Part shown: positions 12,239 to 55,515 of the stretch, one piece after another
How positions within the stretch are numbered: the first letter of the stretch is position 1
Layout of the letters: every line of letters begins with the position of its first letter
Position numbers and translations under genes: made by a program
Notes under the pieces: model-generated
Seen by the model: the letters and a program-made list of their open reading frames with translations, nothing else
Databases searched by the model: none
What the model was told of the DNA's origin: nothing
Assembly (NCBI GenBank): GCA_036823255.1
Contig: DAISGC010000001.1
Coordinates: forward strand, 18,836 to 82,835
Source: Phycisphaerales bacterium
Lineage (GTDB): Bacteria; Planctomycetota; Phycisphaerae; Phycisphaerales; UBA1924
DNA: 64,000 bases
Direction: 5' to 3'

Positions 12239-12267
12239 GCGCGGCCGATCACGTGGATCAGATGATG

Positions 12268-14073: not shown

Positions 14074-14096
14074 GATGGCGGAGGGTAGGTGAATGT

Positions 14097-14217
14097 GAAG
14101 GCCCACAGGCGGGACGCCTGTGCCACCAGAGGTGTGTTGAAGGCCCACAGGCGGGACGCCTGTGCCACCAGAGGTGTGTTGAAGGCCCACAGGCGGGACG
14201 CCTGTGCCACCAGAGGG
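14097..14217. repeat. Tandem array of 3 near-perfect copies of a 42-bp unit with 8-bp stem / 3-nt loop hairpin
   Basis: The unit is GAAGGCCCACAGGCGGGACGCCTGTGCCACCAGAGGTGTGTT, starting at 14097, 14139 and 14181 (the last copy is truncated). The internal hairpin is CACAGGCG-GGA-CGCCTGTG. It has the same orientation as the 13089-13206 array. Confidence 0.9.
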
Positions 14218-14237
14218 CAGAGGGACCGAAGGTGGGC

Positions 14238-14414
14238 TCAGGACGCGCGGGTCTGGGCGACGTTGCTGAGCCAGCTCTCTGCGGAGTCGATCCAGCCGAC
14301 GATGGTTCGGCGCTGCACGATGACGAGCAGGACGACGAGAAGGGTGACGAGCACCCGATAGGTGTTGACCTTCTTCTCGAGGATGTCGATGCGTTCGTTG
14401 GGGTCCTTGGGCAT
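14238..14414 (-). CDS. Small (58 aa) single-TM protein, below the ORF-track length cutoff
   Basis: My translation is MPKDPNERIDILEKKVNTYRVLVTLLVVLLVIVQRRTIVGWIDSAESWLSNVAQTRAS*. A GGAGGA lies 6 nt upstream of the ATG at 14414. Third-position GC is high, and there is one clear hydrophobic helix. Confidence 0.5.
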   Translation of the reverse strand: MPKDPNERIDILEKKVNTYRVLVTLLVVLLVIVQRRTIVGWIDSAESWLSNVAQTRAS

Positions 14415-14650
14415 GGGTTTGTCCTCCGCGTCAGCCGACCGGGCGGACGAGAGCCGCGGGCGGTCGATCGGATTGAGCGGGAGAAATCGGCGCGCAGCGG
14501 CGTGGATCGTGAAATCACGAAGAGTTCGATCAAACGCGCGGCGTGAAGGTCTGGATAACCGGCGAATGCTGCGCGAGCCGGCGCGAAAAGTGCGCCGGCG
14601 ATCGGGAGCTCCGGGCGCGGGCTCACGGGCGGGGGTTCACGGCCGGGGGG

Positions 14651-23191: not shown

Positions 23192-25132
<1,941 letters not shown>

Positions 25133-25228
25133 CGCAGAAGCAACGATATTCGCGCGGAAAACACAGCGGGCCGTCCGAGGACGGCCCGCCGGGGAGAATC
25201 ATGTGCTGGCGAACTGGAGGAACGCGGA

Positions 25229-39629: not shown

Positions 39630-40964
39630 TCAGCACCCGGCGAACCACAGGTTCAGATAGTCGAAGATGTCGTTCACATCCAGGATGCCGCCGTTGATGT
39701 TCGCGCTGGGCAGCCCGGCGAACCACGCGTTGAGGAACGCAAACAGGTCGGTGGTGGTGATCTGGCCGTCGTTGTCGAAGTCCGCGACGCAGGGCCGGGC
39801 GTAGAAGAGTGCCTGTCGCGCCACCACGGGGAACGTTGCGGTCTTGGCGAACAGGACGGTCTCGCCCGGATCGTTGAACCTGCCGTCCCCGTTGGTGTCG
39901 GTCGCCACGACGACTTCAGCGGCGCTGTTGCCCGAGACCGAGCCGTTGGAGCACAGCGCGATGCGTCCCGGGCCGATGGCAAAGCCCTGCGAGGTGGCGA
40001 AGAAGGTGCCCATGGGCATGTTGGCCTCTGACCAGAGCACCGTGACCTCGCTGGCCTGATCGATGCTGGAGCTGAGGTTGTCGTCGCTCAGGCGGACGGC
40101 GAGCTGGGGATTGATCGAGGACGTGCGATCGTGCGTGAAGATCGCCACGCCGTCGGTGACGCACGACTGCACGAACCCGGACGTGCCCCCGAAGCTCCCG
40201 GAGGTGTGGAAGACCGCCAGTTCGCCGGCGTCGATCGCGCCGCTGGAGTTGGTGTCGAACGCGCGATAGATCGCATCCGGCGTGGCCGAGTCGCGGTTGT
40301 CGGCGATGTACACCGCGCCGTTGAGCACGCAGATGTCAAAGGGCGAGCTGATCGCGCTCCCGATGATGGTGTTGAAGTCGATGTACAGCGAGCTCTCGCC
40401 GGCGTCGTCGGCGTCCCCGTCGGCGTTGAGATCGCGCACGCGATAGACCGCGTCCTGCGGGAGGGCCGCGCCCGAGCCGGCGTTGCAGACATAGATCGAG
40501 CTTGCGTCTCCGGCCAGCCCGTTGGGCGTGGGCAGGAAGAAGAAGCCCGCGTTGAACTCGGTGAAGAACGCCCGGAGCTCGCCCGGGTCGTTGGCATCGT
40601 TATCGCCGTTGAGGTCCTTGGCGGCGTAGATCGCCCGCGAGTCGCCGTCCCCGAAGTACACCGTGCCGTCGATCGACTGGTACATGCTGAACACGCCTCC
40701 GGTGCAGTTCAGCCCGGCGGCGTTGGAGCCGTCAACGAACACCGTGGTCTCCCCCGGATCGTTGGCGTTGCCGTTGGAGTTGAGATCGCGGCAGAGGAAG
40801 ATGGCGTTGAGCGAGAGGTCGGCGACCAGCAGCCCCGCCGTCCGCCGAGCAACGGGCATGGGCGCCGTTGCCTGAGCCCACACGCCCGGGCACGCGGCGC
40901 CGACGGCGAGCACCAGGGCGGTCAGAGCGAGCCGGTTGGAACGCGAGCGATCGGACGCGAGCAT
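39630..40964 (-). CDS. Secreted repeat protein (Ca-binding-loop/propeller-like repeats) with GC-terminal dockerin-like anchor
   Basis: A GGAGG lies 5 nt upstream of the ATG at 40964. The signal peptide is MLASDRSRSNRLALTALVLAVGAACPGVWAQA. DxNxDGxxxDxGE-type loops recur (DLNSNGNANDPGE, DLNGDNDANDPGE, DLNADGDADDAGE, DTNSSGAIDAGE, DTNGDGRFNDPGE). The C-terminus is PCVADFDNDGQITTTDLFAFLNAWFAG...LDVNDIFDYLNLWFAGC*. Confidence 0.75.
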   Translation of the reverse strand: MLASDRSRSNRLALTALVLAVGAACPGVWAQATAPMPVARRTAGLLVADLSLNAIFLCRDLNSNGNANDPGETTVFVDGSNAAGLNCTGGVFSMYQSIDGTVYFGDGDSRAIYAAKDLNGDNDANDPGELRAFFTEFNAGFFFLPTPNGLAGDASSIYVCNAGSGAALPQDAVYRVRDLNADGDADDAGESSLYIDFNTIIGSAISSPFDICVLNGAVYIADNRDSATPDAIYRAFDTNSSGAIDAGELAVFHTSGSFGGTSGFVQSCVTDGVAIFTHDRTSSINPQLAVRLSDDNLSSSIDQASEVTVLWSEANMPMGTFFATSQGFAIGPGRIALCSNGSVSGNSAAEVVVATDTNGDGRFNDPGETVLFAKTATFPVVARQALFYARPCVADFDNDGQITTTDLFAFLNAWFAGLPSANINGGILDVNDIFDYLNLWFAGC

Positions 40965-41066
40965 GGAAACCTCCGCAGGGACAACCCCCGCCCCGATCCG
41001 CCCCGCCCCAGATGGTAGAGCGTAAGAAAGATAATCCGGTCTGCAATGCCCGCCACCACCAACGGC

Positions 41067-41105
41067 AAAAAACGCCACGCCCCCGGTCAAACAGACCCGG
41101 GGGCG
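41067..41105 (-). terminator. Rho-independent terminator downstream of the 41151-41909 gene
   Basis: The minus strand reads CGCCCCCGG gtctgtttga CCGGGGGCG tggcg TTTTTT. This is a 9-bp GC stem followed by a T6 run, about 45 nt after the stop. Confidence 0.55.
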
Positions 41106-41150: not shown

Positions 41151-41909
41151 TCAGCGGCGACGCCGAGATCCGGCAAAGGCCAGGCCCGCGAGCAGCATCG
41201 CAGAAACGCCCGGGGTGGGGATCTGCCCGAACTTGATGTTGTCGATGCCGACGCGATCGACCTTGGAGCCGCCCACGGTGATGAGCTGGGTCAGGTCGAT
41301 CCGGATGCGGATCTGCTGAGCGCACAGCGGGCTGCTGGTGAAGTCGAACGTGCGGTGCCGCAGCGGGAGGGTGCCGGGAATGAGCGTCGACGGCGGATTG
41401 TTGATGTCGTAGTCGATTCGGTAGAGCTCGGTGCCGGCGCCATCGGTCACGGTGATCGAGCGGGCCGGGAGGTCTTCGCCGAAGCCGGTCACGGAGTTGT
41501 ACACGGCGGCGAGATCAAAGCTGTACAGGCAGACCAGGAAGCCCGCATCCGCGAAAAGATTGATCTCCAGAATGCCGGGGGAGAAACCGGGAGCATTCCG
41601 GTCGCGGTAGAGCACGTTGTTCAGGTCTCCAAAGACCCGCGTCGGGTCGGCGGGGTTGCTCGCGCCGCCAAGACGCAGCACCGGCTTGTAGTCCACGAGC
41701 ACGTTGGGCGTGATGCCATATTCGGTGCCGTATGAGAATCCGGGGGGCTGGAACGTGTTGGGATCACCGACACGATCGCCGTAAGAGTCCAGGATCTGCG
41801 AGCCGTTCGACCCGCCGAAGTCAAAGGTGAGCACGGTTCCCGCGGCTTGGGAGACCAGACCCGCCGAGACCGTCAGAACAGAAATCAACCCAAGAGAACG
41901 AAAGGACAT
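41151..41909 (-). CDS. Secreted protein with PEP-CTERM-like C-terminal sorting tail
   Basis: AAGGAGG lies 7 nt upstream of the ATG at 41909. The signal peptide is MSFRSLGLISVLTVSAGLVSQAAG. The C-terminus is IPTPGVSAMLLAGLAFAGSRRRR*. Confidence 0.7.
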   Translation of the reverse strand: MSFRSLGLISVLTVSAGLVSQAAGTVLTFDFGGSNGSQILDSYGDRVGDPNTFQPPGFSYGTEYGITPNVLVDYKPVLRLGGASNPADPTRVFGDLNNVLYRDRNAPGFSPGILEINLFADAGFLVCLYSFDLAAVYNSVTGFGEDLPARSITVTDGAGTELYRIDYDINNPPSTLIPGTLPLRHRTFDFTSSPLCAQQIRIRIDLTQLITVGGSKVDRVGIDNIKFGQIPTPGVSAMLLAGLAFAGSRRRR

Positions 41910-42185
41910 GAGACCGCCTCCTTCGCACGCGGCGGACATGCCAACAGACGGCAGGCCCATCGCGAGCGCGATGTGCAACGACACGGTCTCTCTCAAAATG
42001 TTCCCCCTCCCTCTCTCCCCCGAAACCGGGCACACGCCCGAGCCGATAACGTATCACGTTTCCAAACACGATCAAGGGGGTAGCGGGAAATTCCTGCGCC
42101 CGAGGTCCCCTTTTTGGATGTTTCCAAGCGAGCTCAGGCCGCACGCGGCTGAGTTGGGGGCAGATCGTCAGAAATCACCCCTATC

Positions 42186-44941: not shown

Positions 44942-45060
44942 TGGCGGAAGGCACTTGGCACTGGTGCAAGAACAGAGAGCAGAATCTCAAACTGCCTTGA
45001 TGCCTTGATGACCAAGCGCCTTTGTGCTTCGATGCCTGCCGAGTGCCCAGCGCCTCACTT

Positions 45061-46698
45061 ATGAATCTCCAACAGTTTCTCGATCACTGGAAGATTGCCG
45101 AGAACCCCTTTCGGGGCGAGGAAGCTCGGCAGGATCCGGTGTTTCTGCGGCTGGAGGCGGTGAGCCAGGGGGGTGTGGCGGGGAATGCGCCGGCGGCGGC
45201 GATCTCGGGGGTCATCAAGCCCGGCGCGACGACGCACTCGGACTTTGAGAAGATCGCGGGGGACTTTTCCCAGCCGTCGACGGCGATCGTGTTCGGCGAG
45301 AAGGGGAGCGGCAAAACGGCGATCCGGCTGCAACTGGCAGATCGGCTGAACGCGTACAACGCGGCACATCCCGAAGCGCGATGCCTGTGGATCGGGCTGG
45401 ATGATCTGAACCCCGTGCTGGCGAGGTTCGTCGAGCGGACCAAGGTGGAGCGCAAGGCCACGGTCGCGGACACGCTGGCGAAGTTCCGCCTGGTGGACCA
45501 CATCGACGCGATTCTCGCATCGGGAGTTGCGGCGGTGGTGGATGTGATCATCAAGGAGCGGTCGCCGACGGTCGGGGCGGGGCCCGCGGCGGTGGGCGAG
45601 GCGCGCGAGGACGTGCGGAAGATCATCAAGCGGATGGACGGATCGACGCGGCGGGACGTTCTGGCCCTGCAGGCCGCGTATGACGGCGCGTGGGCCGCGA
45701 GCGGGGGCGAGCAGCGCACCCGGAAGCTCCGTCGCGCGCTGCGCATCGCGCCCCCGATCGGGGGCCTGGTCTGGTCGCTTCTGGCCTATCTCGGGTGGAT
45801 TCCGGCGGTGGCGGTCGCCGTGATGCAATGGCGCGGCGGCCAGATCACGACCGATCCGATGCAGTTCACCAGGGCCGAGAGCCCGGTGTGGGTGGTGGCG
45901 GGACTCTTGGCGGCGTGGCTGATCGTGCTGGTGAAGCGGTCGGTGTATGACCGCGTGAAGTACCTGACGCTCGGGCATCGATTGCGGAAGCAGGTGCGTG
46001 TGAGCGCGCGGAGCGACACGAGCTTTGGCCGGTCGCTGCGGGCGATTCCGCAGGCCCTCCTGGACCCGGCGGTCCTGCCGATCACGGGTGCGGATGAGAC
46101 GCGGTACGCGATGCTGGATCGGCTCAAGCGCGTGCTGAAGCACTTCGGATACTCGAGCGTGCTGGTGGTGGTGGACCGGGTCGATGAGCCGACGCTCATC
46201 AGCGGCGATCCCGAGCGGATGAAGAGCGTGGTGTGGCCGATGCTCAACAACAAGTTCCTGCAGCAGCCGGGGCTTGGCGTGAAGATGCTCCTGCCGATGG
46301 AGCTGCGGCATGCGCTGTTCAGAGAGAGCGCGTCGTTCTTTCAGGAGGCTCGGCTGGACAAGCAGAACCTGATCGAGCGATTGAACTGGACAGGTGCGAT
46401 GCTGTACGACCTGTGCGACGCTCGATTGCGCGCGTGCCGAGGGCCGGGGGCGGAGCCGATCTCGCTGCTGGACCTATTCGCGGAAGATGTGACGAAGCAG
46501 GACGTGATCGACACGCTGGATCAGATGCACCAGCCGCGGGATGCGTTCAAGCTGCTGTATCAGTGCTTCACCGAGCACTGCGCGAGCGTGACGAGCGATC
46601 AGGCGCAGTGGCGGATTCCGCGGTTGACGCTGGAGAGCGTGAAGAAGGCGCAGGTGGAGCGGGTGAAGCAGTTGTATCGGGGGATACGGCCGGCGTAG
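45061..46698 (+). CDS. P-loop NTPase with two TM helices inserted between Walker A and Walker B (KAP-family-like architecture)
   Basis: Walker A is IVFGEKGSGKTAI. Predicted TM helices are GGLVWSLLAYLGWIPAVAVAVMQW and VWVVAGLLAAWLIVLV. Walker B-like sequence is SSVLVVVDRVDEP. I trimmed to the ATG at 45061 (MNLQQFLDHWKIAENPF). Confidence 0.65.
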   Translation: MNLQQFLDHWKIAENPFRGEEARQDPVFLRLEAVSQGGVAGNAPAAAISGVIKPGATTHSDFEKIAGDFSQPSTAIVFGEKGSGKTAIRLQLADRLNAYNAAHPEARCLWIGLDDLNPVLARFVERTKVERKATVADTLAKFRLVDHIDAILASGVAAVVDVIIKERSPTVGAGPAAVGEAREDVRKIIKRMDGSTRRDVLALQAAYDGAWAASGGEQRTRKLRRALRIAPPIGGLVWSLLAYLGWIPAVAVAVMQWRGGQITTDPMQFTRAESPVWVVAGLLAAWLIVLVKRSVYDRVKYLTLGHRLRKQVRVSARSDTSFGRSLRAIPQALLDPAVLPITGADETRYAMLDRLKRVLKHFGYSSVLVVVDRVDEPTLISGDPERMKSVVWPMLNNKFLQQPGLGVKMLLPMELRHALFRESASFFQEARLDKQNLIERLNWTGAMLYDLCDARLRACRGPGAEPISLLDLFAEDVTKQDVIDTLDQMHQPRDAFKLLYQCFTEHCASVTSDQAQWRIPRLTLESVKKAQVERVKQLYRGIRPA

Positions 46699-46917
46699 CC
46701 AGGCACGGCGTCGGGCTGCGGATCGCTGCCTTCCGCGTCCGGATCCGGATGCTGGCTGGGTGGTCCGAGTATTCGAGCGGCACGTGACGGCTGTGCAGGA
46801 TGTGTGGGAAGCGCAGAACGGTTGGGGGGGTGGTGGCGGGGGCGGCAAGCGTCGTGGTGATGGGCCCGTGTGCGATGGGCGATATGGCGTGGGATGGTCT
46901 CCAGGCCACCAGACGCC

Positions 46918-47760
46918 ATGGTCACACGTGCGACAAACCTCTGGAAACGTGCAGGGATCGCCGCGGTCGGCGTGATCGCGGCGGCTGCATATGCGCCGCG
47001 GGCCGAGGGCGTGGTGGTGACGGGCCTGTCGCCGATGGCGCGGCCTGCGGATGGGTGGGTGGGGAGCTGGAACGGGTCCTCGTGCGTGGCGGTGGGGCGG
47101 TACTGGTTTGTCACGGCTAAGCACGTGGGTGGGAGCGTGGGGCAGAATGTGACGATGCGCGGGGTCGAGTATCGGAGCGTGGAGGTCCGGCCACACCCGA
47201 TGTATGACGTGCAGCTCATCCGCGTTGCGGAGGAGGTGCCTGGGTATCACAAGCTGGCGATGAACGTCGGGGTTGGGGATCCCGTGGTGATCGGTGGGCA
47301 CGGGGTGACGGGTGCGGCCGCTCTTCCGTCATACGCCGGCTATGACTGGAACGGTCCGCGGCAGGAGGCGTGGGGCGCGAACGTGATCGAGGGAGATGGA
47401 AACCTGCTGGCGATCCGCTTCGACGCGCCGGTGTCATCGAGCGCGGTGCCGAGCGAGGCGATCTTCGCGGTGAACGACTCGGGGGGCGGGCTGTTCACAT
47501 TCGGTGCCGACGGGTCGCTGGAGCTGGCGGGGATCGCGGTGAGCGTGACGAACTTCGGGGCCTCGCCGTGGAGCACGACGGGGTTTGCGCTGAACATCGA
47601 CATGTACCGGTTGTGGATGCAGCCGATCGTGGATCCGACGGCGCCGATCAGTTCGGGCACGGGCGCGCCGCGGGCGATGATGGGCGTGCCGGGGCTGCCG
47701 GGGTGGGCCGGGGGCATGATCGTGTGCTGTGTGCTGGCGGGTCTGCGGCGTCGGCGATGA
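46918..47760 (+). CDS. Trypsin-like (S1) serine protease with PEP-CTERM-like C-terminal tail
   Basis: The signal peptide is MVTRATNLWKRAGIAAVGVIAAAAYAPRAEG. The catalytic triad context is FVTAKHVGG (His), YDVQLIRV (Asp) and VNDSGGGLF (Ser). The C-terminus is VPGLPGWAGGMIVCCVLAGLRRRR*. Alternative starts are the GTG at 46870 and the ATG at 46894. Confidence 0.7.
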   Translation: MVTRATNLWKRAGIAAVGVIAAAAYAPRAEGVVVTGLSPMARPADGWVGSWNGSSCVAVGRYWFVTAKHVGGSVGQNVTMRGVEYRSVEVRPHPMYDVQLIRVAEEVPGYHKLAMNVGVGDPVVIGGHGVTGAAALPSYAGYDWNGPRQEAWGANVIEGDGNLLAIRFDAPVSSSAVPSEAIFAVNDSGGGLFTFGADGSLELAGIAVSVTNFGASPWSTTGFALNIDMYRLWMQPIVDPTAPISSGTGAPRAMMGVPGLPGWAGGMIVCCVLAGLRRRR

Positions 47761-47766: not shown

Positions 47767-49770
47767 CTACTGCCCGGGCAGGTGCTTGTCGATCCAGTCA
47801 TCCTGACGGAGGACTTCGGCGCGGCTGACGCGGGCGCGGTGCTCGGCGCGGCGCTGGGCGTAGGTGAACAGGGCGAGGGCCGTCGCTCTGGAGGAGCCGG
47901 CGAGCTCGCCGGAGGCAAAGCCGGGTGTGGAGCGGAACGCGACGCCCAGAGAGCGTGCGTAGAGGCGGATGAGCTCGTCCTCGAGCGAGATGAAGGTCTG
48001 GGACGAGCCGGGATCGCCTTGGCGGCCGGCGCGACCGATGAACTGGCGATCGATGCGACGCGCGCTGTGCATCTCCGAAAGGATGACGTGAAGCCCTCCG
48101 GCTGCGCGGGCGTCTGGATCGAGCTTGATGTCGGTCCCGCGGCCGGCCATGTTGGTGGCGACCGTGATGGCGGAGGCGCGGCCGGCGTCGGAGACGAGGT
48201 CGGCCTCGTCCTTGTCGAAGTTCGCGTTGAGGACGCGATGGGGGAGATTCCTGGCGGCGAGCTTCTGGCTGAGCAGCTCGCTGGCCTCGATGGACCTGGT
48301 GCCGACGAGGATCGGGCGCTTCAGAGCGTGGATCTGGCGGATGCTCTCGACGATGGCGGACCACTTGGCGTCGAGATTGGCGAAGACCCGCGGGGCCCAC
48401 TTCTCACGGATGACGGGGCGATTGGTGGGGATGACGGAGATGGGCCGCTGATAGACGCGGGACATCTCGCCGGCGGCGTCGGCGGCGGTGCCGGTCATTC
48501 CGCCAAGGTGGGGATACGAGCGGAAGAAACGCTGGAAGCTCATCCGGGCGAGGGTCTCGCGGTCGGCGGTGACCTCGAGCCCTTCCTTTGCTTCGACGGC
48601 CTGGTGCAGGCCGTGCTCCCAGGAGCGATCGGGAAGGAAGCGGCCGGTGTACTCGTCGACGATGACGATGCGTCCGTCGACGATCTGGTACTGGTGCCCG
48701 TGGAGATAACAGTGGCGAGCGACCAGCGCCTGGCGGACGAGTTCTTCCGCGCGGCGCGTGGCCCGCCAGATCGGCTGCTCGAGCCCGGAAGAGAGCTCGG
48801 CGATGCGGTGGCGGCCGCGGCGGGTGAGCTCGGCCTTGCGGCGCATGTGATCCATGACGTAGTCGGCGCGCTCGTCGAGTTTCTGCGCGAGCCAGCAGGC
48901 GTCCTTGTAGACCAGCGCCATGTCGTCCTCGCGACGGGAGCGAGCGATGATGAGCGGAACGACGCCCTCGTCGATGAGCACGGCGTCGGCCTCGTCGACC
49001 AGGGCGGCGTGCAGGCCGGGGATCATGGGACCAGAGCCCATGCCGGCGGCGGGGCCGAGGGATCCGCCAAGCAGCCGTCGACCTGCCCAGGGGGTGTTGA
49101 GCTGGCCCAGGCGGATCTGATCGCGGAGCCAGTCGGCGGTGATCTGCTTGGGCGTGCCGTAGACGATCGGACGGGCGTAGACCTCGAAGCGGGCGGGCTC
49201 TTCAAGAGATTGCACGATCGCGCCGACATCGCACCCGCAGCGGCGGTAGATGCACGCTCGGCTGTCGGCGTCGCGCTGCGCGAGATAGTCGTTGACCGTG
49301 AGGATGTGCAGGTAGCGATGTCGCCAGGCCAGCAGGGGCGCGGCGAGGGAACCGGTGAGGGTCTTTCCCTCGCCGGTGACCATCTGGACGATGCGCCCGT
49401 GATACAACGCCAGTGCGCCCATGAGCTGTACGGGATAGGCCTCCTCGCCGGTCTCTCGGCGGGCGACCTCGCGGATGGCGGCAAGTGCGCGCTGGATCGT
49501 TGACTCATCCTCGCGACCGCGCATGAAGAGCTCTCGCAACTCGCGGACGTGTTCGTTGAGGGCGGCGTCTGAGTGGGTGCGCAGATCCTTGGCGTGGGTG
49601 GTGACGATCTGGGCCTGGGAGCGAAGCCAGGAGAGCGTGTGCCGCGCGTGCTTGAGCTTGGTGCGCGCCATGCTCGCCACGATGTCCAGTCCGCGCGGAT
49701 TCTCCGGCTTGCGTCGGCGGGCCCGCAAGGACTCGAAGAGGGCGTGGTATCGGGTGACCGTGGAGGACAT
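47767..49770 (-). CDS. SecA-like ATPase, C-terminally truncated (about 667 aa; motor domains plus short PPXD, no HWD/C-terminal regions)
   Basis: SecA motifs appear in order: MVTGEGKTL (Walker A), ILTVNDYLAQRDA, ALVDEADAVLIDEGVVPLII (DEAD), IVDEYTGRFLPDRSWEHGLHQAVEAKEG, QRFFRSYPHLGGMTGTA, VATNMAGRGTDIKL and IGRAGRQGDPGSSQTFISLEDELI. The protein ends about 60 aa later. I trimmed to the ATG at 49770, 17 nt after the upstream gene's stop. Confidence 0.8.
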   Translation of the reverse strand: MSSTVTRYHALFESLRARRRKPENPRGLDIVASMARTKLKHARHTLSWLRSQAQIVTTHAKDLRTHSDAALNEHVRELRELFMRGREDESTIQRALAAIREVARRETGEEAYPVQLMGALALYHGRIVQMVTGEGKTLTGSLAAPLLAWRHRYLHILTVNDYLAQRDADSRACIYRRCGCDVGAIVQSLEEPARFEVYARPIVYGTPKQITADWLRDQIRLGQLNTPWAGRRLLGGSLGPAAGMGSGPMIPGLHAALVDEADAVLIDEGVVPLIIARSRREDDMALVYKDACWLAQKLDERADYVMDHMRRKAELTRRGRHRIAELSSGLEQPIWRATRRAEELVRQALVARHCYLHGHQYQIVDGRIVIVDEYTGRFLPDRSWEHGLHQAVEAKEGLEVTADRETLARMSFQRFFRSYPHLGGMTGTAADAAGEMSRVYQRPISVIPTNRPVIREKWAPRVFANLDAKWSAIVESIRQIHALKRPILVGTRSIEASELLSQKLAARNLPHRVLNANFDKDEADLVSDAGRASAITVATNMAGRGTDIKLDPDARAAGGLHVILSEMHSARRIDRQFIGRAGRQGDPGSSQTFISLEDELIRLYARSLGVAFRSTPGFASGELAGSSRATALALFTYAQRRAEHRARVSRAEVLRQDDWIDKHLPGQ

Positions 49771-49787: not shown

Positions 49788-51986
49788 CTAGATGTTCACC
49801 CGGCCCTGGATCTCCTTTCGGAGGCGATCGATCCACTGAGACAGCAGGGGGCGAGTGGGAAGCTTGAACCGGACGAGGACGCGCTCGCCGGGAAGAACGC
49901 TCGTCGCGAGCGCGCTGGAGGCATCGGGGTAGATGTACACGTTGAACTGCGGACGTTTGGCGACGCGTCCGGACTGGTCCTGTGGGTCGATCTCGAATCG
50001 CCCGCCGCCGCCGAAGCCCAGCGCGGCGCTTGGGAGGAGGCGTTGTCCGGCGAGCACGGGCTCGAAGCGTTCGGCGTTGACGATGGTGCTGACGTTGGAG
50101 AGCAGGCGGATCTGGCAGGCCGGGGGTTCGCCGCGCTGGTCGGCGCGGGTGAGGATCCACTCGGCCTGTTGCTGGTCGAAGGTGGCGGCGATGCGGATGG
50201 AGTCGGGATCGACGACGGTGCAGACGGGATCGCCGCGCTTGACGAAGCCGCCGAGTTTCTGGGCCGGGTCATCGCCGGCGACCACGCCGTCATGAGGGGC
50301 GAGGATGACGAGATCGGCGATTCGGCGTTCGATCTCCGCGAGGTTGTCGAGTCCGACACGGAGGCGTTCGCTTGCCAGCGCGGTGACGGCGGGATCGCCC
50401 TTGGCGACGCCGTCGCGGACCATGACGCGAATCTCATCGACCTGCGCGAGGAGCCCGGCCCGCTGTTCCACCAGGTCGCGATTCTCGACGGTGACGATGG
50501 GCTCGCCCTTGAGGACGCGCTCGCCCGGGCGCTTGTGGACCTGGGCGACGAACCCCTCGGTGCCGAAGTAGATGTTCGTCTTGGCGAGACTGTCGACGAC
50601 TCCGGAACCGTGCCGACGATCGGGCATGGGGATGAATCCCACGACGCCCAGCAGAAGGACGACCATGGCGATGGTGATGGCGACGGTGCGTGCCCTGTGC
50701 TCGCTGAGCATGGGGCTGGAGGCGAGCCAGTGCACGAGCTTGCCCAGGGGCATCAGGAACCACGCCGCGGCGGTCCAGACGGCGAGGACGAGCCCGATGG
50801 CGAAGAACTGTCCGAGGACAAAGAGCGTGATGGTGATGAACAGGAAGATGCGGTAGGCGAACGCGAGGATGCCGTAGACGATGAGAATCGTGCGCTCGTC
50901 GGCCTGGGTGGTGGGGGCCGTCAGGTTCTTCAGCCGGTAGATGAACCGCTGAATGAGATGCAGGAGCATCTTGTTGGAGCGGTTGGCGAGATTGGGGACT
51001 TCAAGAAGGTCGGCGAGCATGTAGTAGCCGTCGAACCGCATGAGCGGGTTGGCGTTGAACAGGATGGTGGAGATGCCGCTGGTGACCATGATGTTGAAGC
51101 AGAACCGCGCCAGAACGCTTCCGCCCTGCCCGGATTCCTGCTGGGCGATCCAGACGAACGCCGCGCTCGCGGCGACGACGCGCTCGAACATCATGCCGGC
51201 GGCGCCGACGGCGACGCGTCGCCACTTGCTCGTGAACGCCCACGCGCTTGAGGCGTCGACATATGGCGATGGGAAGAGGACCAGGAGCATCACCCCGAAC
51301 TCGGGCACCTGCCCGCCGAAACGCTTGCAGACCACGCCGTGCCCGAACTCGTGGATGGCCTTGGTGACAACGAAGGCCAGGGGGATGAGCCAGAGGAACT
51401 GGGGGTCGAAGATGTGCTGCTGGTTGAAGTCGCTGGCGAGCTTGCCCCAATGGGGGATGATGCTGATAAGCGCCCAGAGGATCAGCGCGCACCAGGCGAG
51501 GAAGCCCCAGCGGTTGAGGATGGGTCGAAGGATGGGCTCGGCGGCGGTGAGGAAGCGATCCGGATTCAGCAAGCGGATCTTCAGGTACATGATGCCGATC
51601 GCCTGCGCGATGGCCTTCTTCTTCACGCGTTCGCGGCCTCGGCGGAGGAGTTGCTCGGTCTCCGGCGAGGCGTCGCAGGAGAGCAGATTGGACTGATAGA
51701 GCTGGCTGATGAGCTGGATGATCTCGTTCTGCGTGGGGGCCAGGTCGCCGAACTTCTCGAGCGAGGCGTGCCAGGCGGCCTCGATCTCGCGCTGGCCGTC
51801 GAGCATCCCGACAAAGTCGTACGCGACGGGGTTGAGCCGGAAGAACTGGTTGCTGGTGGGATCATGCACGACGTGCCAGCGTCGCCCGCGGTAGTGCTGG
51901 CGGGTGATCTGCACGTGCGGGCGGAGCTTCGGGCGCATGGTCCGCACGCGGTGCCAGAAGGGGCTGAATGTGGGGCGTTCGTTCAT
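49788..51986 (-). CDS. M50 (site-2 protease) family membrane metalloprotease fused to a C-terminal HlyD-type membrane-fusion domain
   Basis: The HExxH motif is in a TM helix (FVVTKAIHEFGHGVVCKRFG). The second S2P motif is FNANPLMRFDGYYMLADLL. It has multiple TM helices, followed by lipoyl-like, coiled-coil and beta-barrel MFP segments (...RPGERVLKGEPIVTVEN...ILAPHDGVVAG...VKRGDPVCTVV). I trimmed to the ATG at 51986 (MNERPTFSPFWHRV), because the longer track ORF overlaps the upstream gene. Confidence 0.75.
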   Translation of the reverse strand: MNERPTFSPFWHRVRTMRPKLRPHVQITRQHYRGRRWHVVHDPTSNQFFRLNPVAYDFVGMLDGQREIEAAWHASLEKFGDLAPTQNEIIQLISQLYQSNLLSCDASPETEQLLRRGRERVKKKAIAQAIGIMYLKIRLLNPDRFLTAAEPILRPILNRWGFLAWCALILWALISIIPHWGKLASDFNQQHIFDPQFLWLIPLAFVVTKAIHEFGHGVVCKRFGGQVPEFGVMLLVLFPSPYVDASSAWAFTSKWRRVAVGAAGMMFERVVAASAAFVWIAQQESGQGGSVLARFCFNIMVTSGISTILFNANPLMRFDGYYMLADLLEVPNLANRSNKMLLHLIQRFIYRLKNLTAPTTQADERTILIVYGILAFAYRIFLFITITLFVLGQFFAIGLVLAVWTAAAWFLMPLGKLVHWLASSPMLSEHRARTVAITIAMVVLLLGVVGFIPMPDRRHGSGVVDSLAKTNIYFGTEGFVAQVHKRPGERVLKGEPIVTVENRDLVEQRAGLLAQVDEIRVMVRDGVAKGDPAVTALASERLRVGLDNLAEIERRIADLVILAPHDGVVAGDDPAQKLGGFVKRGDPVCTVVDPDSIRIAATFDQQQAEWILTRADQRGEPPACQIRLLSNVSTIVNAERFEPVLAGQRLLPSAALGFGGGGRFEIDPQDQSGRVAKRPQFNVYIYPDASSALATSVLPGERVLVRFKLPTRPLLSQWIDRLRKEIQGRVNI

Positions 51987-52083: not shown

Positions 52084-54084
52084 TCACCACCACAGCCACA
52101 ACCTTGCCTGGTCGATGATCCGACGCGAGCCGATCCACAGCAGGCTGCGCTCCACCGTGTCGAACTTGGCGATGCCCTCGACGCCCGGGCTGAACCAATC
52201 GGGTCGGCCCTTGAGCGAAGCCCGGACTTCGAACACGTTCTTTCCCTCGGCCGCCGACGCCAGGGGCACGATCCGCTCGATGGTGACGGGCTGCGGCTCA
52301 TCGGGCTTGGCCTTGCTTGCGACCATGCCTTGCCCCTTGCCGCTGTCGAACGCCTGCTTGATGAGTCCGATGTCGCGCTCGTCGACCTGGGCGACGACGA
52401 TGATGTCATCCAGCGGCGCAACCTGCATCAGCAGATCCCCGGTCTTGACGGTCGAGCCGATGCGATCCTTCACATCCCCGGAGATGATCGTGCCGCCGAT
52501 CGGGGCGAGAATCCGAGACTTGTCGATGCGGAATCGATAGCGCTCGGCTTCGGTGGCGGCCCTGACCTCCTGCTGCTCGGCCTGGGCGACCTTGGACTGG
52601 TCCTTGGCCTTGCGTGCGGCGGCGGCCTGGGTGCGGGCCTGTTCGATGCGTCCCTGGGCATCCTTGAGCGCCAGCTCCAGCTCGCTGGTGTCCAGCTCAA
52701 CCAGCAGATCGCCCTCCTTGACGACGCAGCCGGGAGCGATGCACGGGCCGACGGCGCTCACCACGCCCTCGAACGGGGCGGAGACAAAGCGCCGGACGCG
52801 CGGCTCCAGCGTCGCCTCCGCAGACGGGCGGTACGTGGTCGTGTAGAACGTGACAAAGAGCATCAACGCCAGGGCCGCGATCCCGACGACCTTCCAGACG
52901 GTGTGCTTGGTCCCCACGAACCATGCGGCGGCGTTTCTCGTCGAATCCCAGGCGCGGAGCGGGAGCATGCGGTCGTCGGACCGCCTGATCTTGAGCACCG
53001 GGGCGATCAGGTCCATCGCAGCCTGGATGAGCTCGATGGTCGAGAGGTCGACCGAGCCGTCGGCGGACGTCTCGAACGTGAGCACCCCGATCACGTCGTC
53101 GCCGTCGCGCAGCGGAAGGGAGCAGACCTTGAGCTTGGCGTTGCCCGCGGCGAGCTCGCGATGGGCGTGGACGATCGCCTGGCTGAGCAGCATGTCCGAC
53201 CCTTCGCCGCTGGAGGGCGGCTGGGGAAAGAGCACGGGCTGCTCCTGGTCCAGGCACTCGTCCATGGCGGTGGCGAGCTTCTGCACCATGTTCGTGCGAT
53301 GGTCGAAGTGCTCGATGTCGCTGATGGCGCGGACCTTGACAACGTCGCTCTGCACCCAGCCAAGCGCGACCCGGTCCAGGGCGAACTGCTTGGCCAGGTC
53401 GTTGCAGAGCTGCAGGCACGCGCCCTTGAAGTTCGGCGCGGTGTTCACGCTGGCGATCAGCCGCGTGGCCAGATCAAAGGAGAAGCTCGCCGCCTGGGTC
53501 TTGCGGAGCGCCACGCGCGCGTGGTGCCCGCCGACATATCCGGCGAGCACCTCGGCCATGGCCAGCGTTGATCGGATCGCGTCCTTGGCTCGCGGCTCGA
53601 TGAGCAGGGTGATGGCGGCAAAGGGCACCTCTCGCGTCGGCGAGCCCGACGAGTGCGGCACGGCCTGAGCCCGCTGCCCGAGTGGGATCGCCAGAATGAA
53701 CCCGCTCTGCGACCCCTCGCCGTAATAGAGCTCTTCCTTGTCAAGCCCGAAGGCCCGGGCCTGCCCGGTGGCAAACGCTCCGCGTGCCGCCGTGCGAGAC
53801 TCGTTCCCGAACAGCACCTGTGAGGCCTGCGGCGCAACGGCCCTGGCGGCTTGCTCGGCGTCCTTGTCGAGTTCCGGCGGGGGCCAGATCAGGTCGATGC
53901 GCGGGTCGACGTCCTCGCCGTCGGTCCGGTCCGGAAGGTACAGCACCGCCTGTCTCGCGGCGCTGACCTGGGCCATGACTCGGAGCAGCCGCTCAAAGTA
54001 CACGCGGTCGTCTGGAGCGGAGGCGTTGAGCTCCGCGACGACGCGCTGCCAGCCGGAGGCCTTGAGCTGCGACAGGTCGATCAC
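52084..54084 (-). CDS. Tandem GAF-like domains + TM + HlyD-type membrane-fusion protein
   Basis: The GTG start at 54084 overlaps the upstream stop (GTGA), with a GGAGGA 7 nt upstream. Two GAF-like segments are present (...AARQAVLYLPD...FILAIPLG... and LCNDLAKQFALDRVALGWV...DVIGVLTFET...). The TM helix is VWKVVGIAALALMLFVTFY. MFP motifs are APFEGVVSAV...VKEGDLLVELD, a coiled coil, and ILAPIGGTIISGDV...GDLLMQV. Confidence 0.7.
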   Translation of the reverse strand: MIDLSQLKASGWQRVVAELNASAPDDRVYFERLLRVMAQVSAARQAVLYLPDRTDGEDVDPRIDLIWPPPELDKDAEQAARAVAPQASQVLFGNESRTAARGAFATGQARAFGLDKEELYYGEGSQSGFILAIPLGQRAQAVPHSSGSPTREVPFAAITLLIEPRAKDAIRSTLAMAEVLAGYVGGHHARVALRKTQAASFSFDLATRLIASVNTAPNFKGACLQLCNDLAKQFALDRVALGWVQSDVVKVRAISDIEHFDHRTNMVQKLATAMDECLDQEQPVLFPQPPSSGEGSDMLLSQAIVHAHRELAAGNAKLKVCSLPLRDGDDVIGVLTFETSADGSVDLSTIELIQAAMDLIAPVLKIRRSDDRMLPLRAWDSTRNAAAWFVGTKHTVWKVVGIAALALMLFVTFYTTTYRPSAEATLEPRVRRFVSAPFEGVVSAVGPCIAPGCVVKEGDLLVELDTSELELALKDAQGRIEQARTQAAAARKAKDQSKVAQAEQQEVRAATEAERYRFRIDKSRILAPIGGTIISGDVKDRIGSTVKTGDLLMQVAPLDDIIVVAQVDERDIGLIKQAFDSGKGQGMVASKAKPDEPQPVTIERIVPLASAAEGKNVFEVRASLKGRPDWFSPGVEGIAKFDTVERSLLWIGSRRIIDQARLWLWW

Positions 54085-55118
54085 GGGCTGGTCCTCCCCG
54101 CACCGGAGGCGGTCTTGAACGTCGGGGCGGGCTCGGTGAAACGCACACGGGCCTGCGTGCCCGCCGGCCAGTTCTGGACGTTGGCGATCTCGACGCGGAC
54201 GCGGCGGGTCTGGCTCACGCTGTCTGCGACCGGCGAGACGTACAGCACCGTGCCGCGGACGACCTTGGCCTCCCCGGGAAGGTCCAAGAGCACCCACGCC
54301 GGGCTGCCCTCGCGGAGATTGAGCGTGAGCGTCTCATGGGTGTCGGCGTAGGGGTCGAGCCACAGCTTCTCGGTGTTCACAAGCCGGAGGACGTCCTCCT
54401 GCTCGGTGACGCCCTTGCCGACTTCGACGAGCACTTCTTCGATGACCCCGTCGAATGGGGCCTCCAAGTAGTACCTCTCGTACTGCCCTTCAAGCTGCTT
54501 GAGCCGAAAGCCCTGCTGTTCCAGGTTCTTCTTGGCCTGGTCGCGCTGCACCCGTGCGGTCTCGGCCTCGATCCGGAGCTGCTCGAACTCCGTTGGCGAG
54601 AAGACCTTGCCGCTCTTGAGCTGATTGAACTTGAACTCGGCGAGCTCCAGGGCCTTCTCCGAACCCTGAACCTCGAGGGTGTTCTCCGCAAGGGCGCGCT
54701 GCTGGTCCACAGCGGCCTTGATCTCGGCGTCCCGGGCACGCACGAGCACGTCCCCGCGCTTGACACGCTGTCCGCCGACCACGTTGATCTCGCGCACCTC
54801 CGTGGAGAACGAGAACTTCATGGTGACGTCGTTGCGCGGCTTGGTGTCGGCCTTGTACCCCCCGAACTCGCTGGCGATGGCCTCCCACGCCGAGAACCCG
54901 GCCAGAGGCGTCGAAGACGCCGCGTTCGCCGAGGGCTCGGCCGGAGCCGATCGGTTCGCCGGGGCCGACTGACCCGCGGCGATCGCCACGCCGATGGTCG
55001 ACTGAGCGATCAGGAACAGGATCGCCGGGGTTCGGCCAAACGCCGGGCGGAACAGGAAGGGCCGGTCGGCATCGGCCGTCCCGATCAGAGCGAGAGCGCG
55101 ACTCGTCATATTCACCAT
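54081..55118 (-). CDS. HlyD/efflux-adaptor family membrane-fusion protein (periplasmic adaptor)
   Basis: The N-terminal TM helix is AILFLIAQSTIGVAIAAG. The lipoyl-like motif is VREINVVGGQRVKRGDVLVRARD. It has a coiled-coil hairpin, then LEAPFDGVIEEVLVEVGKGV and a C-terminal beta-barrel. I chose the ATG at 55118; an alternative ATG lies at 55109, and the track ORF starts at 55166. Confidence 0.7.
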   Translation of the reverse strand: MVNMTSRALALIGTADADRPFLFRPAFGRTPAILFLIAQSTIGVAIAAGQSAPANRSAPAEPSANAASSTPLAGFSAWEAIASEFGGYKADTKPRNDVTMKFSFSTEVREINVVGGQRVKRGDVLVRARDAEIKAAVDQQRALAENTLEVQGSEKALELAEFKFNQLKSGKVFSPTEFEQLRIEAETARVQRDQAKKNLEQQGFRLKQLEGQYERYYLEAPFDGVIEEVLVEVGKGVTEQEDVLRLVNTEKLWLDPYADTHETLTLNLREGSPAWVLLDLPGEAKVVRGTVLYVSPVADSVSQTRRVRVEIANVQNWPAGTQARVRFTEPAPTFKTASGAGRTSP

Positions 55119-55515
55119 CGTAGATGCGTTTCCGTCAGCGGTTCCGGCATGTGCACATGCGGTCATGGTGTGATCGGCGTTTGGTCGGTGTGGGGTTGGG
55201 GCGTTTCGGTCGTCGGGCAGTCCGAAGGGTGCTGGGCGTCGAGCGCAGAAGTTGCGTGCACGCCGCCCTGAGATGTACGAAGTGCGCCGGCCGGCGATGC
55301 GCCAATCGGAGATTGTGGGTTTGACCCGTCACAAGCCGAAAAACGCATGTCCGACGGTCCGCCCGGATCGGTCGACCAAGCGGGCGGAGTCCCGCCAAGA
55401 CGTCTGTACGCCAAAAGCGATGCGGCGGTTGAGGTATCCGTGTTCGGCGTGGAGCGGCCGACGGACGTGCAATCGGGCCGTCGCGGGCCCGGATCAAGCC
55501 CAGCGAGTCGCCACC

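Follow-up and report, generated by a model that had tools for sequence, protein, structure and literature searches.

We found that a minus-strand gene in the window (the whole 64-kb stretch of Phycisphaerales DNA analysed here) encodes a genuine, naturally short relative of SecA, which belongs to the widespread family of secondary SecA_DEAD proteins catalogued in 2015. The gene is the last of a four-gene operon, in which it follows genes for a small HlyD-type adaptor, a GAF-HlyD protein and a PqqD-M50-HlyD fusion (Table 1). Because the operon holds membrane-bridging adaptors and a membrane protease, we propose that the SecA-like protein probably powers a separate secretion machine and not the ordinary Sec pathway.

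Table 1. Coordinates of the features discussed, as positions in the window.
Feature	Position	Strand	Remarks
Small LEPR-XLL ORF, 211 aa	951-1586		The only LEPR-XLL ORF of the window; 46 kb from the module
Convergent gene, outside the module	46870..47760	(+)	Coding GC3; bounds the SecA-like gene on its 3' side
SecA-like ATPase gene	47767..49770	(-)	ORF translates to 667 aa
TAG stop of the SecA-like gene	47767..47769	(-)	Read from the sequence; the convergent gene's stop is 6 nt away
Terminal long helix, residues 625-663	47782..47898	(-)	DSSP on the AlphaFold model; the protein stops 4 residues on
Second motor domain NBD2, ~residues 452-600	47971..48417	(-)	P-loop_SecA; holds TNMAGRGTDIKL and the arginine-finger motif GRAGRQGD
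Preprotein cross-linking domain core, residues 287-393	48592..48912	(-)	Full length; SecA_PP_bind matched over 5-110 of 110
Walker B / DEAD motif, residues 259-262	48985..48996	(-)	VDEAD at 258-262
Walker A GEGKT, residues 133-137	49360..49374	(-)	Motif
N-terminal extension, residues 1-36	49663..49770	(-)	No counterpart in E. coli SecA; the pairwise alignment opens with residue 37 against E. coli residue 7
PqqD (RRE-like) + M50 intramembrane metalloprotease + HlyD/MFP fusion, 732 aa	49788..51986	(-)	Pfam
GAF + HlyD/MFP protein, 666 aa	52084..54084	(-)	Pfam GAF, HlyD_3
Small HlyD/RND-type periplasmic adaptor, first gene of the operon	54081..55166	(-)	Up to 361 aa, start uncertain

The SecA-like protein and the point at which it ends

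The start of the gene was placed at the ATG at 49770 because the in-frame stretch extending to 50160 has the codon-position GC of non-coding DNA (GC3 0.49, versus 0.87 within the gene). From this start onward, the codon-position GC is strongly coding along the whole length. The product matches the Pfam models SecA_DEAD (266 bits), P-loop_SecA (184 bits) and SecA_PP_bind (79.9 bits), does not match SecA_SW, and has no transmembrane segment predicted by a hydropathy scan. In a pairwise alignment, its residues 37-658 correspond to residues 7-650 of E. coli SecA with 37% identity, and it also aligns to residues 18-606 of B. subtilis SecA. The Walker A and Walker B motifs are followed by TGR...GLHQAVEAKEG (375-397), GMTGTA (424-429), TNMAGRGTDIKL (539-550) and GRAGRQGDPGSS (579-590). 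An AlphaFold model (pLDDT 74) has the SecA fold, its best TM-scores (0.77) being to the SecY-engaged SecA structures 5eul and 6itc; the N-terminal extension is modelled as two helices, at 2-19 and 28-40.

The stop lies at the equivalent of about residue 659 of E. coli SecA, inside the long scaffold helix. The terminal helix of the model represents most of this scaffold helix (about residues 625-659 in E. coli), with a pLDDT of 76-88 up to about residue 640, 68 for residues 641-650 and below 50 from residue 653. The helical wing domain, the two-helix finger (IRA1) and the C-terminal tail are absent. A tblastn search of all frames of the 64-kb window with residues 655-901 of E. coli SecA returned nothing (best E 7.4), and a canonical secA was likewise not detected by tblastn within the window.

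These results allow several proposals of the first-pass annotation to be judged. It had described a SecA homolog without the helical wing or the C-terminal linker, carrying all of the DEAD-motor motifs in canonical order and an N-terminus longer than that of E. coli SecA; the Pfam matches, the translation and the alignments bear this out, the N-terminal excess being about 30 aa. It was also right that there is no room for a missing 3' part, given the empty tblastn search and the convergent ORF, whose TGA ends at 47760. Three details have to be revised. First, the tail after ...PGSS is 77 aa, and not about 60. Second, the protein does not end within the start of the scaffold helix, most of which is kept. 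Third, the cross-linking domain is not shortened, since SecA_PP_bind is matched almost from end to end and the segment between PLIIA and TGR is about 100 aa both here and in B. subtilis SecA, the E. coli segment being about 15 aa longer.

The convergent gene encodes a secreted product with a PEP-CTERM-like tail, for which searches of the PDB and NCBIfam gave no significant match. The earlier reading of this gene as a protease ending at 47760 was correct as to its end; the name "protease" is backed only by a sub-threshold Trypsin match (E 0.033), and the product carries weak trypsin-like motifs only. We rejected the gene as a part of the system because the genes 3' of the module vary among the Phycisphaerales loci (L003, L144 and L145).

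Conservation and distribution of the family

Could the short ORF be a housekeeping secA that is truncated or decaying, whether through a break in the assembly, a frameshift or pseudogenisation? It is indeed shorter than all housekeeping SecA proteins, and it scores below the NCBIfam cutoffs for SecA. However, the identical protein occurs in two independent assemblies (a record of the same 667-aa sequence, with 100% identity, is P0001), and hundreds of homologs across phyla share its length and stop position. The 120 best 90%-identity clusters (there are at least 120 Phycisphaerae clusters) all have lengths of 653-703 aa; among the 150 best 50%-identity representatives, the median is 663 aa and almost all lengths lie within 640-690 aa; and the ORF stops 0-8 aa past the end of the family profile in every one of 110 C-terminally complete genes from many phyla. 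In 88 diverse members, T132, G133, G135 and K136 of Walker A, D259, E260 and D262 of Walker B, and R544, G545, D547, R580 and R583 are invariant. Together with the coding codon-position GC and the lack of any remnant of the C-terminal domains in any frame of the window, these observations refute the idea of a decayed copy, to which we assign practically no probability. The short ORF is not an assembly or frameshift artefact, and nothing in the window would restore the missing scaffold and wing domains, two points that the first-pass annotation had marked for checking.

From the invariant motifs and the SecA fold, we infer that the protein is an active motor with ATPase activity. A second way of reading it is as a DEAD-box RNA or DNA helicase without a role in protein export: the NCBI annotation pipeline (PGAP) names some members "DEAD/DEAH box helicase", the Walker B motif reads DEAD where the aligned position of E. 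coli SecA reads DEVD, and the Pfam DEAD model gives a weak match in 49 of 69 members. In all 69, however, SecA_DEAD, the cross-linking domain and P-loop_SecA are matched far more strongly (SecA_SW gives a marginal match in one). The best structural matches of the model are all SecA, with helicases appearing only at TM-scores of 0.40 or less, and the operon partners are membrane and periplasmic proteins. A helicase is thus very improbable. The pipeline names family members unevenly in general, as helicase, prepilin peptidase, SecA or hypothetical protein.

The motif [FY]QRFFR (FQNYFR in E. coli SecA) was found at no fewer than 120 genome loci, in Planctomycetota, Verrucomicrobiales, Alpha-, Beta- and Gammaproteobacteria, Desulfobacterota, Myxococcota, Nitrospirota, Fibrobacter, Acidobacteriota and Rokubacteria. 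These phyla overlap with those reported by Kamneva, Poudel and Ward (PLoS One 2015; PMC4452313), and the operon is the same. Those authors named the family "secondary SecA_DEAD domain proteins", tied it to neighbouring HlyD, GAF-HlyD and M50-HlyD genes, and placed its clade beside actinobacterial SecA2 (PMC4452313). Because the family and its neighbourhood were published in 2015 (PMC4452313), the SecA-like protein is less novel than the earlier annotation had assumed. In 12 cases the module is borne on a plasmid or chromid, which would imply that the same cells carry a chromosomal secA.

The operon partners

The gene order of the operon is shared with three other Phycisphaerales chromosomes (L003, L144 and L145), in which the small adaptor sits at the equivalent position. 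This adaptor matches HlyD_D23, HlyD_3 and Biotin_lipoyl_2 in Pfam and scores above the cutoff for TIGR01730 (103 bits). The GAF-HlyD protein consists of a cytoplasmic N-terminal half with the GAF domain, one transmembrane segment and a periplasmic adaptor; its GTG start, set by alignment to the L003 ortholog and preceded by a GGGAGGA Shine-Dalgarno sequence, overlaps the stop of the preceding gene (GTGA). The M50 fusion (100% identical to P0271, of 732 aa) matches PqqD at its N-terminus (28 bits, above cutoff), Peptidase_M50, HlyD_3 and HlyD_D23, has predicted transmembrane segments, and ends 17 nt upstream of the SecA-like start. The association with MFP and M50 neighbours suggested by the first-pass annotation holds widely: of the 60 loci with enough upstream sequence, 55 have a same-strand M50-HlyD fusion gene as their immediate upstream neighbour. 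HExxH and NxNPLxxxD are invariant among 53 diverse M50 fusions, of which only 27 give a PqqD match at E<=0.001.

The N-terminal PqqD domain, of a type that binds peptide leaders, is a new observation for the M50 protein, as is its resemblance to RiPP leader peptidases: in NCBIfam, it comes nearest to the models for the daptide intramembrane metalloprotease (176.8 bits, cutoff 300) and YydH/LiaK (40 versus 225). The four-gene operon encodes no ABC transporter, none of its proteins is an obvious protein-conducting channel, and a TolC/OEP gene was not found among the part of the window's ORFs that was scanned. Kamneva et al. likewise found no ABC transporter, and some of their loci encode TolC; in Methylobacterium extorquens, the module genes other than the GAF gene were barely expressed in exponential growth (PMC4452313).

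Giant genes beside the module

What might such a module export? In 11 of the 12 alphaproteobacterial plasmid or chromid loci, which represent about 5-6 independent lineages, a giant ORF lies directly upstream of the module on the same strand, with annotated gene sizes of up to 38.8 kb. The LEPR-XLL motif is present in all five of the giant-protein N-termini examined, and the Methylosinus locus also encodes TolC. At one Sedimentisphaerales locus and one locus of an alphaproteobacterial MAG, the starts of LEPR-XLL ORFs lie 2-3 kb downstream from the SecA-like gene. The synteny of the module with giant genes in Alphaproteobacteria and the LEPR-XLL motif in the giant N-termini are new here, and they make the giant LEPR-XLL protein of the adjoining upstream gene the most likely cargo in this class. 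A 2026 preprint describes giant LEPRxLL proteins of Chlorobium chlorochromatii for which no export signal is known and whose expression goes together with that of a horizontally acquired "secA". Among the papers searched, none ties the module to LEPR-XLL cargo, and literature searches on PqqD+M50+HlyD, SecA+GAF+HlyD, SecA_DEAD and LEPR-XLL returned no functional study. In the accessible portion of a Chemical Reviews article of 2021 that deals with tripartite and type I systems, the name "Kamneva" is absent, and the few matches to SecA or M50 concern other topics.

In the Phycisphaerales genome of the window, the cargo gene is not adjacent to the module, and a giant or LEPR-XLL gene is found next to the module in none of the four Phycisphaerales loci (the window, L003, L144 and L145). 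We make no claim that the small LEPR-XLL ORF of the window is cargo. It is kept at about 210 aa in close relatives, and no module was found within 10 kb upstream of its homologs, whose contigs break about 110 nt after the gene and thus show the upstream side only.

A proposed exporter

Based on the PqqD domain that the M50 fusion carries, on the likeness of this fusion to RiPP leader peptidases, and on the synteny with giant LEPR-XLL genes, we propose that the four proteins form an envelope-spanning exporter resembling type I secretion, in which the SecA-like motor takes the place of the ABC transporter and which serves leader-bearing cargo. This is the reading that we favour, and we consider it reasonably probable. 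Export would begin in the cytoplasm, where the PqqD (RRE-like) domain of the fusion protein binds the N-terminal leader of the cargo. [quoted passage not shown] The leader could be cut off by the M50 metalloprotease, and the GAF domain may gate or regulate export. Site-2-protease folds are small and the operon holds no obvious channel, so SecYEG could still provide the route across the inner membrane.

A bolder version is more tentative, and we rate it as possible but somewhat short of probable. It holds that the module is a secretion system without an ABC transporter whose signal is the N-terminal LEPR-XLL motif (NF012209), in which PqqD reads the leader, the motor threads the chain from the N- to the C-terminus and M50 cleaves the leader, and that it exports giants of 8,000-37,000 aa, among them the symbiosis proteins of Chlorochromatium, for which no secretion signal is reportedly known.

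Two other explanations also take the SecA-like protein to be an export motor. In the first, the module matures and exports small peptides in the manner of RiPPs: the PqqD-M50 protein trims a leader, and the SecA-like ATPase and HlyD adaptors export the peptide. The PqqD domain itself and the closest NCBIfam models, both of them RiPP metalloproteases, speak for this, as does the name that NCBI gives to the M50 fusion, "PqqD family peptide modification chaperone". Nevertheless, beside the module in the four Phycisphaerales loci, we found neither a radical SAM, YcaO or lanthionine synthetase gene nor a small precursor-like gene, and in Alphaproteobacteria the gene that consistently adjoins the module is giant and not small. 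A SecA-type clamp motor fits long unfolded chains. We consider peptide export of this kind rather unlikely.

In the second, the protein is an accessory motor of the SecA2 type that feeds SecYEG, so that export proceeds in two steps and the HlyD, M50 and GAF proteins act later, in transit through the periplasm and outer membrane and in leader removal. This would agree with the SecA fold, the intact clamp domain, the retention of most of the scaffold helix, the lack of an evident channel-forming protein in the operon, and the position of the clade beside actinobacterial SecA2 (PMC4452313). Every SecA2 model of NCBIfam, however, scores far below its cutoff; the tight operon tie is to adaptor and protease genes and not to Sec genes; and both the two-helix finger and the wing domain are missing from the protein. 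It is with these parts that SecA inserts into SecY or makes contact with it, and known SecA2 proteins retain the scaffold domain. We therefore regard a motor that feeds SecYEG as unlikely and prefer an exporter that may work independently of it.

The family shows that a SecA motor can be separated from its SecY-engaging parts and joined to type-I-style adaptors and an intramembrane protease. If the link to cargo is true, the export of signal-less proteins of at least 10,000 residues becomes testable by ordinary genetics in culturable Alphaproteobacteria, as does the purpose of the LEPR-XLL N-terminal motif. If the LEPR-XLL reading is also true, the module would supply the export route that has long been missing for giant proteins of bacteria.

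Comparison with known systems

The closest counterpart is the family of Kamneva et al. (PMC4452313), in which SecA_DEAD and PP_bind are present, SecA_SW is absent or fragmentary, and the neighbours encode M50/HlyD, GAF/HlyD and HlyD-only proteins. The window protein has SecA_DEAD and lacks SecA_SW, and its operon contains Peptidase_M50/HlyD, GAF/HlyD and HlyD proteins. The phyla in common are Planctomycetes, Verrucomicrobia, Proteobacteria and Nitrospirae, and the 2015 paper is silent on Phycisphaerae, the PqqD/RRE domain, homology to RiPP leader peptidases and cargo (PMC4452313). The position of the small HlyD gene differs, being first in the window and after the SecA-like gene in M. extorquens (PMC4452313) and in the Methylosinus, Pseudosulfitobacter and Pontibrevibacter loci; in the remaining alphaproteobacterial loci, the gene order differs again.

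Like housekeeping SecA, the protein has NBD1 and NBD2, the cross-linking domain, most of the scaffold helix and the full set of ATPase motifs. Absent are the remainder of the scaffold domain (two-helix finger/IRA1), the wing, and the C-terminal linker that carries the zinc-binding tail. Extra residues are found at two places, 30 aa at the N-terminus and about 18 aa in an insertion ahead of the DEAD motif. Its scores fall below the housekeeping cutoffs (NF009538, 521 versus 814 bits; TIGR00963, 509 versus 800) and below those of the SecA2 models TIGR03714, TIGR04221, TIGR04397 and NF012136 (352-452 bits versus cutoffs of 725-1100). The setting also differs from that of SecA2 (SecY2 or accessory Sec, in Gram-positive bacteria and actinobacteria), the neighbours here being HlyD, GAF-HlyD and PqqD-M50-HlyD. 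The E. coli fragment SecA-N68 (PDB 5k9t), a strong match in structure and sequence, likewise consists of the motor and the cross-linking domain without the C-terminal domain. N68 is an engineered laboratory fragment, whereas the natural SecA-like protein is about 50 residues longer and keeps the scaffold helix. The ATPase of N68 is deregulated because IRA1 is missing.

Type I secretion has in common with the module the HlyD-type adaptors (here three proteins with HlyD_3 and HlyD_D23), the occasional presence of TolC in the locus, and giant repetitive or calcium-binding proteins as the likely adjacent cargo. The module differs in having a SecA-type ATPase instead of an ABC transporter, three adaptor paralogs, one of which is fused to an M50 protease and another to GAF, and a candidate signal that is N-terminal (LEPR-XLL), whereas the classical RTX secretion signal is C-terminal. 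As for the RiPP proteases (NF041824 and NF058609), the N-terminal 420 residues of the M50 fusion align to positions 1-362 of 379 of the daptide model, a part that contains PqqD and HExxH; in contrast to these proteases, the fusion scores below the family cutoff, is joined to a periplasmic HlyD adaptor and has no RiPP biosynthetic genes nearby. Finally, the giant proteins of Omnitrophota and Actinobacteria (10.1101/2023.11.21.568195) also combine SecA motor and preprotein-binding domains, without scaffold or wing, with a link to giant proteins. There, the SecA domains are built into the giant protein and make up a fast-evolving clade of their own (10.1101/2023.11.21.568195), whereas the SecA-like motor described here is a free-standing protein of about 660 aa, encoded in an operon with adaptors and a protease.

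Domain content of the SecA-like protein

The first-pass annotation had described a SecA homolog of unusually short length, and our analysis confirms this observation. All of the SecA motifs that it had quoted occur in the protein in canonical order, and a Pfam scan recovered SecA_DEAD (residues 42-436), P-loop_SecA and SecA_PP_bind (residues 287-393, equivalent to model positions 5-110 of 110), with no match to the scaffold/wing domain SecA_SW. All NCBIfam SecA and SecA2 models match the protein strongly, yet far under their curated cutoffs (NF009538, 521 bits; cutoff, 814), and no dedicated NCBIfam model was found that matches it. The 667-codon gene has GC1/2/3 values of 0.70/0.48/0.87, resembling those of the window's other genes (window GC, 67%), and its in-frame extension to 50160 has a GC3 of 0.49, a non-coding pattern by codon-position GC. 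An identical protein of 667 aa (P0001) is present in public collections.

Residues 37-658 aligned with residues 7-650 of E. coli SecA at 37% identity, and residues 45-660 aligned with residues 18-606 of B. subtilis SecA. When 145 sequences are aligned, the final residue falls opposite E. coli residue 659; the family median is 663. In E. coli SecA, the scaffold helix occupies approximately residues 621-668, the wing 669-755 and IRA1 with the two-helix finger 756-830, and the C-terminal tail follows at 834-901. By the alignment and these boundaries, the SecA-like protein retains the two motor domains, the cross-linking domain and about three-quarters of the long scaffold helix, and is devoid of everything C-terminal to it. 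The AlphaFold2 model, with a mean pLDDT of 73.9, finishes in a single long helix (625-663), and its highest Foldseek TM-scores, 0.75-0.77, were with SecY-engaged SecA (5eul, 6itc, 3dl8 and 3din); the engineered E. coli SecA truncation N68 (5k9t) was also matched. The interpretation offered in the first-pass annotation is largely supported, including a longer N-terminus than that of E. coli SecA (an extension of about 30 residues), but not its shortened cross-linking domain, which equals that of B. subtilis in length and falls short of that of E. coli by only about 15 residues. Similarly, the tail after GRAGRQGDPGSS, put at about 60 residues and at the mere start of the scaffold helix, counts 77 residues and spans most of it.

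No membrane segment was predicted in the protein by hydropathy; it is a soluble SecA-type motor in which the clamp domain and the catalytic residues are intact. Compared with E. coli SecA, the protein also carries about 18 inserted residues just N-terminal to the DEAD motif (residues 222-252; window 49015-49107, minus strand), a segment of low model confidence in which W228 is invariant in a 32-sequence Phycisphaerae alignment.

A widespread wingless family

Could the short form have arisen by truncation of an ordinary secA gene? As had been argued earlier, there is no room for a missing 3′ part, the TGA of the convergent ORF ending at 47760 and the TAG of the SecA-like gene lying at 47767-47769. 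The missing C-terminal domains were not found elsewhere in the window, since a tblastn search of all frames with E. coli SecA 655-901 gave no match, and an identical gene with the same stop occurs in two independent assemblies from different sequencing runs. With these two assemblies, a stop conserved among relatives and no C-terminal remnant, a truncation artefact is effectively excluded.

The best 120 clusters at 90% identity, from Phycisphaerae MAGs, comprise proteins of 653-703 aa at 64-77% identity, and SecA_SW was found in none of them; among the best 150 representatives of 50%-identity clusters, the median length is 663 aa. A DNA pattern for the family-specific motif [FY]QRFFRxYxxLxGMTGT, in place of which E. 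coli SecA has FQNYFR, was scanned over one genome per GTDB species. At least 120 loci matched, some in cultured strains; the matches listed include Planctomycetota (Phycisphaerae and Planctomycetia), Verrucomicrobiales, Alpha-, Beta- and Gammaproteobacteria, Desulfobacterota, Myxococcota, Nitrospirota, Fibrobacter, Acidobacteriota, Methylomirabilia and Rokubacteria. In all 110 C-terminally complete genes, the stop comes 0-8 residues (median 2) beyond the end of the family profile. Across 88 members there is no variation in Walker A, in DEAD or at either arginine-finger position. SecA_DEAD, P-loop_SecA and SecA_PP_bind were detected in 69 of 69 members, and SecA_SW in one, marginally. Given these domains and strong Foldseek matches exclusively to SecA structures, a nucleic-acid helicase is effectively excluded. 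Members are named inconsistently in the RefSeq and PLSDB records behind L125-L129, L135 and L138 (alphaproteobacterial plasmid and chromid loci): 'DEAD/DEAH box helicase', 'prepilin peptidase', 'preprotein translocase subunit SecA' and 'hypothetical protein'.

Coordinates of genes discussed in the text
Feature	Location	Coordinates	Strand	Details
LEPR-XLL ORF	window	951-1586	+	211 aa; N-terminus …HSLGVFEALESRSLLSGDP…; NF012209, 20.1 bits (cutoff 17)
mnmG/gidA	window	23192-25198		
SecA-like ORF	window	47767-49770	-	667 residues; N-terminus MSSTVTRYHALF; C-terminus KHLPGQ*
PqqD + Peptidase_M50 + HlyD fusion gene	window	49788-51986	-	732 aa, from the identical P0271
GAF + HlyD gene	window	52084-54084	-	GTG start overlaps preceding stop as GTGA
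Small HlyD/RND-type adaptor gene	window	54081-55166	-	operon member
DUF3467 small gene	L125	3590-3895		between giant gene and module
DUF3467 small gene	L127	15430-15750		between giant gene and module
DUF3467 small gene	L129	15443-15724		between giant gene and module
DUF3467 small gene	L138	7641-7985		between giant gene and module
SapC-family gene	L128	18947-19768		in or beside cluster
SapC-family gene	L134	1858-2655		in or beside cluster

The operon and its surroundings

The SecA-like gene is the last of four genes in a minus-strand operon, tightly coupled to three periplasmic adaptor genes and separated by 17 nt from the fusion gene upstream of it. One adaptor forms a single fusion protein with an intramembrane metalloprotease and a cytoplasmic leader-binding domain, and a second is fused to a cytoplasmic GAF domain. 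By hydropathy, the other two adaptor proteins have one predicted membrane anchor each, the GAF half being cytoplasmic, and the M50 region of the fusion has several predicted membrane segments. The same four genes occur in identical order in three other Phycisphaerales chromosomes, each time with a DegT aminotransferase gene in divergent orientation upstream and with different genes downstream. Among diverse loci, 60 have 2.3 kb or more of upstream sequence, and in 55 of these the gene immediately preceding on the same strand encodes an M50-HlyD fusion; the same holds for 26 of the 33 with partial upstream sequence.

An accessory SecA2-like motor still working through SecYEG is possible but disfavoured. 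First, the two-helix finger and wing are absent, so that the protein is without the elements that are inserted into or set against SecY in canonical SecA. Second, the scores with the SecA2 models are low. Third, the operon partners are not Sec proteins.

A system of exactly this kind has been described. [quoted passage not shown] They suggested that ATPase activity for a type-I-like system comes from the SecA_DEAD protein and that the M50 protein may be a membrane component. Their paper makes no mention of Phycisphaera, PqqD or cargo, and no later functional study of the module was found in the literature searched. Because both family and neighbourhood were described in 2015, the gene studied here is a Phycisphaerales representative of a published family, and its intrinsic novelty is modest.

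Several other features of the window were observed. It appears to span the chromosomal replication origin, because dnaA (7734-9461, minus strand) lies beside a sign change in GC skew, whose cumulative curve reaches its minimum near 10 kb, and because of the position of mnmG/gidA. PEP-CTERM-like anchors (…GLRRRR, …AGSRRRR) end several secreted proteins, among them that of the convergent gene beside the SecA-like gene (46870-47760, plus strand), which has only a sub-threshold Trypsin match; that at 41151-42035 (minus strand); and the products of three paralogs (12223-14877) that follow the module in L003, one of the three orthologous Phycisphaerales loci. A 558-aa P-loop ATPase (45022-46698, plus strand) matched the Sll1717 family and the model of a 'DS41' anti-phage protein, in both cases below threshold, and a secreted repeat protein (39630-41090, minus strand) has a C-terminal dockerin-like segment (…DVNDIFDYLNLWFAGC) recognised by eye alone.

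Leader-peptidase homology and giant LEPR-XLL genes

The homology of the M50 fusion adds to the 2015 description. Its N-terminal 420 residues align with almost all of the NCBIfam daptide-biosynthesis intramembrane metalloprotease model, at 176.8 bits against a cutoff of 300, and the YydH/LiaK epipeptide protease model matches the same region more weakly. The PqqD domain in this region scores 28 bits, over the Pfam cutoff; it was detected in 27 of 53 diverse fusions, with invariant residues throughout the region. Homology identifies the N-terminal region as a leader peptidase preceded by a leader-binding domain (RRE). The protease is likely to be active, because none of the 53 fusions departs from HExxH or from NxNPLxxxD, the second zinc-ligand motif.

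We inspected 12 alphaproteobacterial plasmid or chromid loci with the module and found it syntenic with giant LEPR-XLL genes. In 11 of them (L125-L129, L135, L137, L138 and L141-L143), the module is directly preceded on the same strand by a giant ORF, and the twelfth is cut by the start of its record. The annotated giant genes measure 24.4, 26.5, 31.6, 31.8 and 38.8 kb and encode up to 12,918 aa; the remaining six ORFs, of at least 2,547 aa, extend past the stretch examined. LEPR-XLL is present in all five giant-protein N-termini examined, four exceeding the NF012209 cutoff and the fifth having LEPRLLLAAD just upstream of its annotated start. LEPR-XLL ORFs are also found on the downstream side of the SecA-like gene, starting 2-3 kb away, in a locus from Sedimentisphaerales (class Phycisphaerae) and in one from an alphaproteobacterial MAG. 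DUF3467 and SapC-family proteins, encoded at four and two loci, respectively, may be accessory or chaperone components, and TolC is encoded in one of the module loci examined. The sole LEPR-XLL ORF of the window lies 46 kb from the module; its protein is conserved (204-212 aa in five related clusters), and the module is absent from the 10 kb upstream of its homologs, whose contigs end about 110 nt past the gene.

A system for small-peptide (RiPP) maturation and export would agree with the PqqD-M50 homology, but no modifying enzyme or precursor gene was seen adjoining the module, and the consistently adjacent gene in Alphaproteobacteria is giant. We instead propose export of a larger cargo, whose N-terminal leader would be bound by the PqqD domain and cut off by M50. 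The unfolded chain would be threaded by the SecA-like motor into a conduit of the M50 membrane domain and the adaptors, leading on to a TolC-type channel, and GAF might regulate the process. Against this scheme, the operon has no gene for an obvious inner-membrane channel, the scanned ORFs of the window did not include a TolC, and no cargo gene adjoins the module in the Phycisphaerales loci examined. The link to LEPR-XLL giant proteins, together with the leader-peptidase logic, gives the family a concrete, testable function.

A 2026 preprint on Chlorochromatium reports on Chlorobium chlorochromatii: the giant proteins Cag_663 and Cag_665 begin with LEPRxLL and are stated to lack any known export signal, SapC precedes the giant genes, and a horizontally acquired 'secA' (Cag_1676) shares one co-expression cluster with Cag_663 and Cag_665, although its authors draw no connection to the SecA_DEAD module. 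In the giant proteins of Omnitrophota, by contrast, wingless SecA domains are embedded within the giant protein itself.
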